Assembly: GCA_963701965.1 (NCBI GenBank)
Contig: OY969695.1
Coordinates: forward strand, 960,001-1,024,000
DNA length: 64,000 bases
Direction of reading: 5' to 3'
Source of the DNA: an uncultured Gemmatimonadales bacterium
Lineage (GTDB): Bacteria > Gemmatimonadota > Gemmatimonadetes > Gemmatimonadales > Gemmatimonadaceae
Positions 33,819 through 51,562 of the stretch are shown here, piece after piece. The notes below the pieces were generated by a model that was not told the DNA's origin, did not search any database, and saw only the letters and a program-made list of their open reading frames with translations. Numbering within the stretch: the first letter of the stretch is position 1; every line of letters begins with the position of its first letter. The translations under genes were made by a program, and so were the position numbers.

Positions 33819-34676
33819 ATGGCCCAGGCGCCCGGCATTCTCTTTTCGTTCGCGCATCCGGATGACGAGAGCTTTCTCGTGGCCGGGACGGGGTGCGCCT
33901 ACGGAGCCCGCGGCGTCCGGCTCGCCCTGTTCACCGCGACCCGCGGCGGCGCGGGGAAGGTCGGGGATCCGCCGGTGTGCGCGCGCGAGGAGATCACGGG
34001 CGTCCGGGCGCGGGAGTTGAGCGCGGCCACCGCCATCCTGGGCATCGACGACGTCACCCTGCTCGACTATCCGGATGGGGCGCTGGGGGATGTGCCCGCG
34101 GATGACATCCGGCGGCATCTCGTGCGGCTCATCCGGCGCCATCGGCCCGCGGTGGTCGTCACGTTCGACCCGAACGGCGCGAACGGACATCGCGATCACG
34201 TGGCCATCAGCCGGTTCACGTCGGACGCGATCGCCGCGGCCAGTGATCCGCGGTGGTACGAGGACGAAGGCGCGCCGCACGAGGTGCGGCGATTGGTGTG
34301 GACGCCGCCGGCGCCGTGGTGGTCGGACCGCGACCAAACGCTGGGCGTCGACTTTCGCATCGACGTCCATGCCTACTGGGAGCGGAAGGCCGCGGCGCTG
34401 CGGGCGCATTGGACGCAGCATCAGTCGATCAATCGGATTTTCTTTGCGAATGAGCACGCCGCGGAGATCTCGGCGCAGCCGAGATCTGTCCAACCGACCG
34501 GGGATCTCGCGACGCGGAGCGGCGCGGAGATCTCGGCGCAGCCGAGATCTGTCCAACCGACCGGGGATCTCGCGACGCAGCGCGTCGCGGACATCTTGTC
34601 AGTGGAGGCGTTCCGCCAGGCATGGGGGCCGCGACTGCCCGAGCGACCGACCGCCGACCTGCTCGTTGGCTTGTGA
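33819..34676 (+). CDS. PIG-L/LmbE-family deacetylase carrying an in-frame repeat insertion
   Basis: AHPDDE, GHRDH, KAAALRAHWTQ. Confidence 0.88.
   Translation: MAQAPGILFSFAHPDDESFLVAGTGCAYGARGVRLALFTATRGGAGKVGDPPVCAREEITGVRARELSAATAILGIDDVTLLDYPDGALGDVPADDIRRHLVRLIRRHRPAVVVTFDPNGANGHRDHVAISRFTSDAIAAASDPRWYEDEGAPHEVRRLVWTPPAPWWSDRDQTLGVDFRIDVHAYWERKAAALRAHWTQHQSINRIFFANEHAAEISAQPRSVQPTGDLATRSGAEISAQPRSVQPTGDLATQRVADILSVEAFRQAWGPRLPERPTADLLVGL
34461..34600 (+). repeat. Two tandem 63-bp double-hairpin units, in frame
   Basis: Period 63; AGATCTCGGC-GCA-GCCGAGATCT stem, TGTCCAACCGAC linker, second imperfect stem. Confidence 0.95.
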
Positions 34677-37913: not shown

Positions 37914-38423
37914 ATGAACGACCCCCTCGTGGTACCACGGGATCCGGACGCGCTGGCGGCGCTCTACGAGCGGTACGCGCCGGTCATGATGCGCGTGGCC
38001 TATCATATCACCGGCTCCCGGGCCGACGCCGAGGACGTGCTCCATGACGTCTTTCTGGGCCTGCCGCAGGCGCTCCAGCGGTACGAAGAGCGCGGCCGAC
38101 TCGAATCCTGGCTCGTGCGCCTCACGGCCCGGGCCGCGCTGTCGCGCGGCCGCCGCCGGCGGCGCCAAGCCGAGACACCCATCGAGAACAAGATCGTGTC
38201 CGCCGCTCCGGGAGACGTCGAGCGCCGGCTGGCCCGCGCGGACCTGCGCGCGGCACTTCATGCGCTGCCGGCGTCGCTGCGCGCGGTCGTCGTGTTGAAG
38301 GAGATCGAGGGGTACGCCCACGCCGAAATCGCCGAAATACTCGGGATCACCGCCGGCGCGTCCGAAGTTCGCCTCTGCCGCGCCATGCGACGGCTCCGCG
38401 CCACGCTCACGGAGGGCACATGA
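37914..38423 (+). CDS. ECF sigma factor
   Basis: DAEDVLHDVF, EGYAHAEIAEILG. Confidence 0.9.
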   Translation: MNDPLVVPRDPDALAALYERYAPVMMRVAYHITGSRADAEDVLHDVFLGLPQALQRYEERGRLESWLVRLTARAALSRGRRRRRQAETPIENKIVSAAPGDVERRLARADLRAALHALPASLRAVVVLKEIEGYAHAEIAEILGITAGASEVRLCRAMRRLRATLTEGT

Positions 38424-39520
38424 CACACCTCAGCGATAGCGCACTGCTCCAGTACGCGACTGGTGAATTGACCGGTGATCGCTCGGGCGTCGCCGAGCAT
38501 CTGGCCGGCTGTGGCGCGTGCCGCGGGATCGTGCTCGACACGCGGCGCATCGGGGCCGATCTCCGCGATCTGCCGGTGCCGCCGGCCCCATCGCTGGATG
38601 CGCTGCTGCGGATCCCCAGGGTGCGGCCGCGGACCGTGTGGCCCCAGGCCATTGCCGCGGTCCTGGTCATCGGCATCGCGGGGGCGCTCATCGCCAACAC
38701 GCCCGGCGCCATCGCGACCATGAGCCTATGGCCCGAGCCGCCACACGAGCCCGGGCCGCCGGTTACGGCGATACTGCCCAACCGCATCGCCGCGGGCCGG
38801 TGGACCTACATGTCGCGGATGTACACGGACAGCATCCTGTGGAGCACGCCCGTGATGTTCACGGTGACGGTCGATTCGGCCGCGGTTGGACCGACGCCGG
38901 CGTGGCGCGTCGTGGAGAGCGGCGCCCGGGGCTCCGATACCACCATTGTCGCCCGCGGCGACCTGCGACCAATGTCCGGCGTGCTCTCCGATCCGGGCAG
39001 CGGCCTCCGGGTCGTGACGACCTACTCGCGCGACAGCGTCATCACGATCGACTCGGCGCCGCGATACCGGTACGCCGACGGACATCGCGGGCTCAAAGTG
39101 CGACGGCACGCGTTCGCGATGGCCGACACGGTGCGCGTGCGCGCGGTCAACGAGGCCGGTCTCTGGGCCCTCATGCGGACCTTGCCCCTCGAGCGCTCGT
39201 GGCGCGGAACCATTGCCATGGTCGAGGACCCGGCATGGTCCCACGGCGCGGTGATTCGACAGCTGGCGGTGGAAGGCCGGCATACGATCGTCACGCCCAT
39301 CGGCCGCTGCGACTGCTGGCAGGTTTCCGTCTCGCACGGCGGCGTAACGGGGATCTCGGCGCAGCCGAGATCTGTCCAACCGACAATGGATCTCGCGACG
39401 CGAAGCGTCGCCGAGATCCTGTGGGTGCGCGCGTCCGATCGGATCGTGGTCAAGACCGAGTCCGTCGGCGAAGACGTGGGTGTCGTGGAGCTCGTCGCCG
39501 AGGACCCGCCGCCGACCTAG
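38420..39520 (+). CDS. Zinc-finger (ZAS) membrane anti-sigma factor
   Basis: HLAGCGAC motif, TM, beta-rich C-terminal domain; ATGA-coupled to the sigma gene. Confidence 0.8.
   Translation: MTHLSDSALLQYATGELTGDRSGVAEHLAGCGACRGIVLDTRRIGADLRDLPVPPAPSLDALLRIPRVRPRTVWPQAIAAVLVIGIAGALIANTPGAIATMSLWPEPPHEPGPPVTAILPNRIAAGRWTYMSRMYTDSILWSTPVMFTVTVDSAAVGPTPAWRVVESGARGSDTTIVARGDLRPMSGVLSDPGSGLRVVTTYSRDSVITIDSAPRYRYADGHRGLKVRRHAFAMADTVRVRAVNEAGLWALMRTLPLERSWRGTIAMVEDPAWSHGAVIRQLAVEGRHTIVTPIGRCDCWQVSVSHGGVTGISAQPRSVQPTMDLATRSVAEILWVRASDRIVVKTESVGEDVGVVELVAEDPPPT
39352..39419 (+). repeat. Single copy of the double-hairpin element, in frame
   Basis: GATCTCGGCGCAGCCGAGATCTGTCCAACCGAC identical to the 34.5-kb copies; second stem GGATCTCGCGACGC-GAA-GCGTCGCCGAGATCC. 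Confidence 0.95.
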
Positions 39521-49216: not shown

Positions 49217-49935
49217 GGCGTGGCTGCATCCTCGCTCTCGCCGTCTTCGGGGCCCGGGTGGTCGGGGCCCAGGCCGCGAACGGGCTGGTGGTCGACCAGG
49301 GGAGCTTCACCATCACCGTGGGGTCGACCCGCGAGGGGCGTGAGACATTCGCCATCCGGCGTTCGCCGGCGGGAGGGGTGGACGCGCCGTTTCAGGCCAC
49401 GGGCACGGTGTTGCTGACCGACCGGCGCTTGACGCCAGCGCTGACGACGGACGCCTCGGGAGGACCCATCACGTATACGCTCGAAGTGCGGGGGGGCAGC
49501 GCGCCCATCGAGCGCATGGCCGTGAGCCGGGACCGTGGGTTCCTGACGTTACGCGGCCAGTGGCCGGGCGAGGAGTCGGTGCGGGAGATTCCCACCGCGC
49601 CGGTCCGCTGGGGGCCCGACTCGGCGGCCATCGGCGGCACCGTCCTCGTGGACGACGATGTCGTGCATCACTACTACTTTTTGTTGCTGCGGCGCCGGGA
49701 AGGCACGGTGTCGGTCGTCGTCCCCCGGCGGCAGGCCGCCGTCGCCCTGCACATCGCGCGCGATGGCGCCGACTCGGTCGTCATTGGCAACCACATTCTC
49801 AAAGCCGAGCGCGTCAGCATTACGGGTGACGCGGATGGGGAGCGCCTGGTGTGGGTCGATGCGGCCGGCCGGGTGCTCAAGGTCGAGGCGCCGGACCGGC
49901 ACTTGCTGGCGTTGCGCGATGACCCGCCGCGGTAG
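49213..49935 (+). CDS. Secreted hypothetical protein
   Basis: Signal peptide, beta-rich, GTGA overlap with upstream gene. Confidence 0.7.
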   Translation: MRRGCILALAVFGARVVGAQAANGLVVDQGSFTITVGSTREGRETFAIRRSPAGGVDAPFQATGTVLLTDRRLTPALTTDASGGPITYTLEVRGGSAPIERMAVSRDRGFLTLRGQWPGEESVREIPTAPVRWGPDSAAIGGTVLVDDDVVHHYYFLLLRRREGTVSVVVPRRQAAVALHIARDGADSVVIGNHILKAERVSITGDADGERLVWVDAAGRVLKVEAPDRHLLALRDDPPR

Positions 49936-49965
49936 CCGGCACGGTGTCAGGGAGGCGCAGGCAGT

Positions 49966-50041
49966 CGAGGAACGCGTGAGCGTTCCTCGTGTCCAACCGA
50001 CGGTTTCAGGGACGGCCGACAGGCCGTCCCTGAAACTTGTC
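49966..50041. repeat. Intergenic double hairpin sharing the TGTCCAACCGAC linker
   Basis: Perfect 10-bp stem 49966-49989, linker 49990-50001, perfect 15-bp stem 50003-50036, then TTGTC. Confidence 0.85.
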
Positions 50042-50083
50042 ATAACTCCGTCACGTACGGTCACCAACTTGGCCCAGGGATTC

Positions 50084-51562
50084 ATGGTTCGTTCTAGAGT
50101 CGTCCGTCTCGGCGCCCGTCTGCTTGGCGCCTGCCTGTTGTCGGCCAGCGCGGCCCGGGCGCAGGGACCCACGCCGGACTCGGCGGGACCCATCCTGTCC
50201 TTGACCAATGCGCAGAAGATCGCCCAGCGCAACAACCCCGCGTACCTCCAGAGCATCGTGGCGCGCCACACCCAGAGCGCCTCGTTGCGCGCGGCGTACG
50301 GCGGCCTGCTGCCGCAGCTCACCACATCGATTCAAGGCCAGTACACCCAGGCCGGTACGAGTCTGATCGCCGGCCAGCAGCTCGGCGCGAGCTCGGACTA
50401 CTGGGCGTCCTTGTGGCAGCTCAATCTGAATTACACGCTGAGCGCCAACACGTTGCTGAGCCCCGCGGTGGAGCGCGCCAATCGCGATGCCACCGAAGCG
50501 GACATCGGCACCGCGGCCGCGACGCTGCGCAACAACGTCGCCATGGCCTACATCGCCGTCCTGCAGGCCCGGGCCCAAGCCGAGCTGCAGGACACGCTGG
50601 TCTCCGATGACCAGGCCCAGTTGCTTCTGGCCCAGGCGCGGGTCGCCGCCGGCGCGGCGACGCCGCTCGACGTCCAGCGCGCCGAGGTCACGCTCAACCA
50701 GCAACAAGTGCAGGCTGTCCAGGCGCACAACCAGATCGATATCACGAAGCTCCAGCTCTTTCAGGTCCTCGGCGTGCAACAGCCCAAAGGCGTGCAGGTC
50801 CGCGACACGTTCGCCCTCGTGCCTCCGCCCTACGGGCTCGACAGCCTGATGGCGATCGCGCGCCAGTCGAACCCCCAGCTCGTCGCCATGCACGCCCGCA
50901 CGCACGCCGCATCGGCGGACGTGCACCGCCAGCGCGGCCTCTACGCGCCGGTCCTGCAGATCCAGACCGGTCTCAGCGGCCAGACGTTCCAGTACACGGA
51001 CGTCAACGTCCTGGTGAACTCGGAGCAGCAGAACTTCGCGTTGAACTACCAGCTCTGCCAACTGCTCAATGGCGGGAACGCCGCGACTTGCGGCCCGCCG
51101 ACGCTATCGCCGGCGGAGATTCAGAGGCTGCGCCAGGCCAACAACCAGTTTCCGTTTGGTTTCATCAACAACCCGCGGCAGATCTCGGCGATGGTCTCGC
51201 TGCCCCTCTTCGACGGGTTTGTCCGCGAATCGCGGATCGAGCAGGCCGAAGCGGCGCGCGAGAACGCCCAGTACAACCTGCGGGGTCAGGAGTTGACGCT
51301 GACGGCGGCGGTCACGAGCTCGTATCTGAACGTGATGACCGCCCGCCGAACGGCCGATCTCCAGCAGCAGACGGCGGCCAAGGCCCGTGAGGAGATGGCC
51401 CTCGCCCAGGCCCGCTACGAAGTGGGAGCGGCCTCATCGTTGGATGTGACTGATGCACGGGCCGCGTTCGAGCGCGCCGAGACTGATCGGATCAACGCTG
51501 TGTATTCTTATCAGACGGCATTCGCCGCGCTCGAGAGCGCGGTGGGCCGTCCTCTTCGCTGA
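50084..51562 (+). CDS. TolC-family outer membrane protein
   Basis: Signal peptide, NNP, LPQL, SLPLFDG, ARYEVGAASSLDV. Confidence 0.9.
   Translation: MVRSRVVRLGARLLGACLLSASAARAQGPTPDSAGPILSLTNAQKIAQRNNPAYLQSIVARHTQSASLRAAYGGLLPQLTTSIQGQYTQAGTSLIAGQQLGASSDYWASLWQLNLNYTLSANTLLSPAVERANRDATEADIGTAAATLRNNVAMAYIAVLQARAQAELQDTLVSDDQAQLLLAQARVAAGAATPLDVQRAEVTLNQQQVQAVQAHNQIDITKLQLFQVLGVQQPKGVQVRDTFALVPPPYGLDSLMAIARQSNPQLVAMHARTHAASADVHRQRGLYAPVLQIQTGLSGQTFQYTDVNVLVNSEQQNFALNYQLCQLLNGGNAATCGPPTLSPAEIQRLRQANNQFPFGFINNPRQISAMVSLPLFDGFVRESRIEQAEAARENAQYNLRGQELTLTAAVTSSYLNVMTARRTADLQQQTAAKAREEMALAQARYEVGAASSLDVTDARAAFERAETDRINAVYSYQTAFAALESAVGRPLR

Follow-up and report, generated by a model that had tools for sequence, protein, structure and literature searches.

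The hairpin-linker-hairpin element upstream of a TolC-like efflux gene, at positions 49966-50041 of the window (the whole 64,000-nt stretch of DNA analysed), is a private-sequence member of a dispersed repeat family with at least 99 units at 66 loci of the present genome (G000), and this family is, as far as searched, an undescribed mobile repeat of the REP/MIRU kind whose stems are matched to their targets. We regard the mobility of the repeat as very likely. The flank-matched stem is the surprising part of the finding: the last hairpin often has an outer arm that repeats, in inverted form, sequence which the host already had. Family counts refer to the whole 5.1-Mb genome, gene placement is based on our own gene calls, and five congeners (G001-G005) were compared. 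The 99-unit catalogue was curated by hand (7 doubtful rows were left out and 20 sites added by eye) and undercounts at least one array.

Read on the plus strand, the focal copy opens with hairpin 1 (49966-49989; 10-bp stem, GTGA loop). At 24 nt, this hairpin is a longer variant of the 21-nt form that is usual in the family, and its geometry is shared by the copies at genome positions 395718 and 395783. Next comes the 12-nt linker (49990-50001; family consensus N-G-T-Y-C-A-A-C-C-G-A-Y), which would act as the recognition or cut site. A single unpaired G at 50002 separates the linker from hairpin 2 (50003-50036), a perfect 15-bp stem with a GACA loop, and TTGTC follows directly (50037-50041). 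This is the architecture described in an earlier note on the same DNA, apart from the G at 50002, which that note omitted. The 3' end of hairpin 2 is the TGAAAC box of the host, and its 5' end is an inverted copy of that box. The 76-mer folds into the two hairpins with a DNA z of -9.0, an equally good fold being found in 0 of 200 shuffles, and the genome holds no second copy of hairpin 1 (at up to 4 mismatches) or of hairpin 2 (at up to 7). Immediately upstream, at 49936-49965 (+), lies a degenerate partial copy consisting of the linker end and the left arm of hairpin 2; its alignment score is 37, against a maximum of 33 among 5000 random genomic 40-mers, and it is likely a relic of a tandem unit.

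The association of the linker with hairpins was readily confirmed. The 12-mer occurs four times in the window (0.00 expected; none in shuffles) and 20 times, exactly, in the genome, and a hairpin of at least 7 bp lies directly 5' of 17 of these 20 copies, compared with 1.5% of 20,000 random positions. In its relaxed form, NGTYCAACCGAY, the linker has 85 exact sites, 59 of them abutted by a hairpin of 19-24 nt, and the hairpin-abutted share drops to 0.25-0.44% when 2-4 mismatches are allowed. The core [CA]AACCGA[CT] has an upstream hairpin at 77 of 513 sites, against 2/330, 3/240, 1/502 and 2/489 sites for four scrambled cores. The proposal that the 12-mer is flanked by hairpins more often than by chance was thus well founded (17/20 versus 1.5%; 77 sites versus 1-3). 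AAC is present in the linker of all 99 units, which is partly a product of how the catalogue was selected. The first four linker bases are variable, with 20 different 4-mers; TGTC is found in 24 of the 99 units (15 of the 66 loci), AGTT and AGTC have similar frequencies, and what stays constant is AAC(CGAY).

Across the copies the stem sequence varies and the structure is conserved. Hairpin 1 usually has 9 bp and a 3-nt loop, which is of the GNA type in 64 of the 84 canonical hairpins 1, and two-sided changes occur at seven of its nine pairs, a covariation score reached by 0 of 500 shuffles (49 distinct rows, pre-selected for pairing). Hairpin 2 begins 0-4 nt past the linker in 61 of the 66 loci, mostly spans 30-41 nt and often has a single bulged base in its 3' arm. 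GNA/GNNA tips are found in 36 loci, and tips of the reverse complement in none. A GNA cap makes a hairpin particularly stable in DNA, as opposed to RNA, and the confinement of these loops mostly to one strand is as expected for single-stranded DNA. Units measure about 60-90 bp, lie mostly at gene boundaries and follow one another head-to-tail within arrays, with no inverted dimers. Cross-tabulation shows that 5' and 3' hairpin types mix as modules around the AAC-containing linker: each of the two main types of second hairpin is found after a GATC-type first hairpin, and the three-hairpin 3' module characteristic of G003 also occurs behind a G-rich first hairpin. The suggestion of a REP-like family defined by structure, with interchangeable stems, is borne out by this mixing.

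Two further loci, which belong to the GATC subfamily, lie in the window, both on the plus strand and both in frame. At 34466-34597, two tandem units with a 63-nt period are inserted in a PIG-L deacetylase gene, adding about 40 residues which the G002 orthologue lacks; a single unit at 39352-39419 lies within the ORF at 38420-39520. Read by eye, this ORF is anti-sigma-like, and it follows an ECF-sigma-like ORF (37914-38423) which resembles a gene product near another copy of the repeat; the pair (37914-39520) may be related to the TGAAAC-CGTA promoters considered below. More generally, repeats of this family add 20-40 residues to housekeeping proteins.

The focal copy sits between a host gene without any Pfam match (49258-49935, +) and the TolC-like outer-membrane efflux gene (50084-51562, +), the first of an OEP-HlyD-ABC-MacB/FtsX operon. 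A predicted ECF-sigma-type promoter of this operon, TGAAAC-N17-CGTA, spans 50031-50057 (+), and the motif agrees with the sigma-W-type promoter consensus as given in the accessible part of PMC5758882; it occurs 22 times in the genome, 17 of them outside called genes. TGAAAC followed by CGTA at 16-17 nt is kept before the tolC-like gene in all five congeners, and in each of them the orthologous position lacks the hairpins. The predicted promoter is older than the insertion, and the element landed just 5' of it, its stem taking in the predicted -35 box. In G000 the promoter spacing is intact although TGAAAC forms the 3' end of hairpin 2, so that the focal repeat folds the predicted -35 box of a promoter into a stem.

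The focal element is not a conserved operon signal, nor a tolC-specific regulator. The wider proposal, that selection maintains the hairpins as signals in RNA (protecting 3' ends or terminating transcripts between genes), or as a regulator of the tolC operon at the focal site, draws on the placement of the copies: 18 of the 49 non-coding loci lie between convergent genes, compared with 620 of 4396 gene pairs genome-wide, hairpin 2 stands against a convergent gene end in 33 of these 49, and 15 of the 17 loci inside reading frames are on the coding strand. Nonetheless, we consider it very improbable. A structured RNA signal upstream of the operon, one of the two readings offered in the earlier note, is not supported for an element absent from 5/5 congeners, lying mostly upstream of the predicted promoter and found elsewhere beside unrelated genes; no Rfam family was matched, the best hit scoring 26.6 bits against a gathering cut-off of 52 and the interval 34.4-34.66 kb of the window giving 0 matches. 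In addition, a terminator-like U tract was not found, 17 loci lie inside reading frames, and the loop type is one that is stable in DNA rather than in RNA.

Among the 66 loci, 49 are intergenic or at a gene boundary. At 22 loci the right arm includes a convergent stop codon, at six the upstream stop codon ends on the first base of hairpin 1, and ATGA/GTGA junction insertions are seen in L021, L055 and L094. The period is 63 or 69 nt in all four arrays wholly within genes; among intergenic arrays, values of 62, 65 and 68 nt also occur. Some orthologous sites are filled in G000 and empty in congeners, and for others the reverse is true; at two sites, G000 and G003 have elements that differ or that point in opposite orientations. 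Short duplications (TA, TAGAT, RTGA, GATC-like) accompany the filled sites L037, L074, L021 and L094; their boundaries are approximate, since the relatives are only about 70-80% identical. The genes beside the copies are unrelated host genes, and no mobile gene recurred among 265 neighbouring proteins (Pfam was run on 41 of them). Several individual neighbourhoods may be recorded here: a two-unit in-frame copy lies inside a gene for a VirD4/TraG-type coupling protein (L044:6513-8120); a 72-aa ORF, of a type often seen in mobile cassettes, stands directly against a four-unit array (L178, genome 4078291-4078509); and G003 carries a different small ORF at the position of the G000 copy at 3025831.

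The family appears to be narrowly distributed. A covariance model was built, as had been suggested, from hairpin 1 and the linker, and searched in the congeners and the order; it gave 10, 9, 63, 6 and 9 matches in G001-G005, respectively, that is, 6-63 copies in each of the five. The 140 other genomes of the order yielded no strong match, 15 of them having weak matches only (best E = 0.0019). In a collection of 185,579 genomes, the strict pattern was found at 20 loci, 19 of them in MAGs of Gemmatimonadales or Gemmatimonadaceae and the remaining one without a hairpin; the same collection contained no mycobacterial match to the family pattern. A metagenome scan returned 18 loci, most with flanks homologous to the G000 genome. 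Three scans of viral contigs gave 0, 2 and 7 matches, none with the architecture of the element, a plasmid collection gave no full-length match, and the G-rich variant was found in 0 of the 301 class genomes searched.

The relationship between outer arm and host flank was evaluated at the 22 loci with a convergent stop in the right arm, by swapping flanks and refolding. Own flanks pair 114 nt in total (mean 5.2), against 1.9 per swapped flank; the permutation maximum was 90, and 114 was reached by 0 of 100,000 permutations. The own flank is strictly the best in five of the 22 loci and best or tied in 12, and two loci pair 0 nt with it. Such mirroring recurs at individual loci. The left arm of L031 mirrors eight coding-flank bases conserved in the empty site of G000; arms of L037, L022, L021 and L094 mirror flanks with start or stop codons; in another copy the mirrored sequence is the 3' end of a tRNA-Arg gene; and the array at 3681426 agrees with the Asp-Tyr-stop codons of its own flank and not with the synonymous ones in G003. 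In L126 and L135, which lie against the end of the same gene (…GYWF-stop), the Phe codons are synonymous, and the left arm of each copy agrees with the codon beside it.

Such matches could arise if the left arm were inherited and acted as a guide, so that the element lands only on targets that pair with it, as in retargeting of the IS200/IS605 type, the arms diversifying by mutation. The GATC subfamily fits this picture: its arm is largely common to the copies, the target already resembles the arm, targets such as the Glu-Ile codons are present in the empty orthologue, and one target pairs through a G-T wobble; moreover, guide-directed choice of cleavage has been demonstrated for TnpA-REP, according to the portion of PMC8266576 available. 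For the family as a whole, however, we find guidance quite unlikely. The 22-locus test gives private matches, with 18 distinct 5-nt flanks among the 20 loci scored. In subfamily B (11 of 13 copies scored), the outer arms are as diverse as random stop-codon contexts (difference of 2.82 versus 2.83 of 4 for random TAG contexts), and relatedness of arm and core is uncorrelated (Mantel r = -0.34); being diverse and not tracking the core, these arms were not simply inherited.

Alternatively, the element may be mobile and its arms be matched to the flank later, by ordinary template switching during replication (quasi-palindrome correction), a process which perfects imperfect inverted repeats in bacteria (PMC5941160, PMC7202029, PMC8794818; accessible parts). 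Compensatory changes after insertion do occur, in the inherited pairs L033/L136 and L055/L253 and in the L052 array, so arms can also be rewritten later; the evidence is limited to these named cases, an automated count having mixed array units and misalignments. We nevertheless judge template switching unlikely as the general explanation: the matching stops at a fixed place by the linker, without outer homology on which to realign, flanks in L021/L123/L134 have drifted without compensation, and internal units of arrays have not adapted to the sequence next to them but retain an arm that suits the terminal flank. The last point applies to the arrays at genome positions 644118, 4078051 and 4117055 and to L021, whose internal units carry the arm fitting the terminal flank; matching therefore preceded amplification. 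Template switching and guided target choice are the main rivals to copying at insertion, and each may explain some of the copies.

On balance, we favour as probable a gene-less element which moves as single-stranded DNA, is cut at or near AAC, and acquires a new outer arm, templated by the 3' flank, before amplification. The nuclease would be supplied in trans; it would bind the GNA-capped hairpins and cleave at the constant AAC or close to it, so that the 5' and 3' modules could be swapped. Insertion would take place at short sites such as TA/CTAG, GATC or RTGA, with duplication of 2-5 bases. At or soon after insertion, the nascent strand would fold back on the hairpin tip and use some 4-10 nt of the 3' flank as template for the left arm, as far as the linker; tandem arrays would arise afterwards between the duplicated ends, and purifying selection would spare only those copies that preserve codons and promoters. 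A more specific version, possible but doubtful, has an enzyme other than Y1 cutting the AAC linker and synthesising the outer arm from the target during insertion itself, each copy being thereby re-programmed. If copying is indeed part of insertion, it would be a target-templated step of which we found no description for bacterial mobile DNA in the literature searched. Neither the family nor flank-copied bacterial arms turned up in the word-matched full-text literature searched, and this silence is weak evidence of novelty.

Candidates for the mobilising enzyme were sought in the genomes of the genus. Y1 (PF01797) and RAYT (NF047646) were each detected in 0 of 6 genomes, which are 67-95% complete, with positive controls; a search for Y2 also gave 0 of 6, its control being likewise silent. 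A six-frame scan for the HUH motif, judged by eye, gave nothing convincing; the polarity of the loops and the swapping of modules are indirect signs of a single-stranded element mobilised by an HUH enzyme. Tyrosine integrases are numerous in all five genomes searched, reverse transcriptases were found only in G000, IS630-type DDE_3 exceeded the cut-off in 1 of 6 genomes, and IS110 is present in 3 of 5, no element of the family being seen in the IS110 flanks examined. Other candidates were set aside: the GIY-YIG gene near one array is UvrC/Cho-like and belongs to a housekeeping operon, DUF559 gave one weak match, and a possible gene-flanking inverted pair in G003 encloses housekeeping genes. 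The idea of an IS91-like GTYC tetramer at the cut site is weakened by G003 copies that start with ATTCC, TTTCC or CATCC.

These searches bear directly on the reading that a RAYT mobilises the family as a classical REP system with a GACA foot. In its short GC-rich hairpins, its bulged long stem and its tandem clusters, the family does resemble REP/BIME elements as portrayed in the accessible parts of PMC6006769 and PMC3733652. Yet TGTC, the counterpart of GACA on the strand read here, is found in only 24 of the 99 units (15/66 loci), which leaves no fixed foot of the kind the earlier note had envisaged; searches for a gene of the Y1/RAYT type found none in the six genomes; and the units stand head-to-tail, not as inverted dimers. 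This reading is largely refuted and we find it scarcely credible.

Besides the family proper, several stretches associated with tRNA genes or foreign in appearance deserve mention. At L196, L205 and L207 (G136:C9) and at L189 (G138:C67), GC-GNA-GC hairpins are followed by a linker-like word sharing 10 of the 12 linker bases. They sit at the T-loop inside duplicated tRNA 3' ends, and in G136, next to tRNA-Ser, they make up a tandem unit of 134 nt; these tRNA-end hairpins are possibly a distant relative of the family. In G000, tRNA-Lys lies between two divergent copies whose first hairpin is G-rich (L045:7880-8250; genome 345.9-346.25 kb), in a tRNA cluster upstream of an rRNA operon, with a duplicate of the tRNA-Lys 3' end after one copy; a hybrid with a tRNA T-loop at 345.9 kb was considered and rejected, since the site is better described as a minus-strand copy with a G-rich first hairpin. 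At genome 3048-3120 kb, the 3' end of tRNA-Asn is duplicated seven times, six of the duplicates within about 70 kb of the gene and one at 4.29 Mb, and they adjoin two integrase-like matches, as in a tandem integration hot spot. Finally, genome positions ~237-256 kb (L231, L234, L184, L185) hold integron-cassette-like repeats, two IS110 genes, two reverse transcriptases and an ORF which we take to encode a dfrB-like dihydrofolate reductase; this stretch looks foreign, and may be an island or contamination.

Compared with known systems, the family differs from MITEs in that its ends are not mutually complementary, each end forming its own hairpin, and in that a cognate IS was not found, the IS110 loci examined having no element of the family in their flanks. 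In integron attC sites, the RYYYAAC end pairs with a distal GTTRRRY end; the linker contains an RYYYAAC-like word, but the partner end is absent from the focal copy and, by eye, from the folds of the family. Cyanobacterial SDRs are likewise very small mobile repeats, with compensatory structure and in-frame insertion, but they are single units of 21-27 nt. With IS200/IS605 ends and REPINs, as covered in the available parts of PMC8266576 and PMC3116915, the family shares subterminal hairpins, an unpaired stem base and single-stranded substrates (likely in our case), and differs in that TnpA was not found, short duplications are seen at filled sites, there is no inverted doublet and the arm is matched to the flank. 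The Rickettsia palindromic repeats (RPE) are also inserted in frame into unrelated genes (PMC10969869, in part), but they measure about 105-150 bp with a family-wide sequence, whereas the present repeats measure about 60-90 bp, have variable stems and lie mostly at gene boundaries.

The family also has parallels among REPs and MIRUs. REP/BIME elements (GTAG, CGTC) share short palindromes, hairpin-bulge-hairpin stems, clusters and some intragenic copies, and REPs of the CGTC class are also without a known transposase (both from the accessible text of PMC3733652). The present family is equally made of multi-copy, short, GC-rich hairpins, mostly extragenic (49/66 loci); it departs from REPs in its constant motif, which is internal, the terminal tetranucleotide not being constant, in its head-to-tail units and copy-specific stems, and in that RAYT was not found. 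MIRUs are elements of 40-100 bp in tens of copies, with GC-rich internal inverted repeats, short direct repeats at filled sites, ends that overlap start and stop codons, and open frames (PMC3184786, PMC12548453; accessible parts). Compared by description, insertion at start/stop overlaps, open frames and short direct repeats are all present here (L021, L055/L253, L094); the differences are the phylum and, as far as the accessible parts of these two papers report, the fixed linker between swappable hairpins and the arm copied from the flank. How tiny gene-less palindromic repeats such as REP-CGTC, MIRU and RPE spread is an open question, to judge from the portions available of PMC3733652, PMC3184786 and PMC6006769, and this family offers a testable handle on it, since its internal motif is constant, its modules can be swapped, empty counterparts of its sites exist in congeners, and its stems keep a record of their targets. 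In its way of working it belongs with MIRU, RPE and CGTC-REP, but the tests that define REPs and MITEs set it apart from both.
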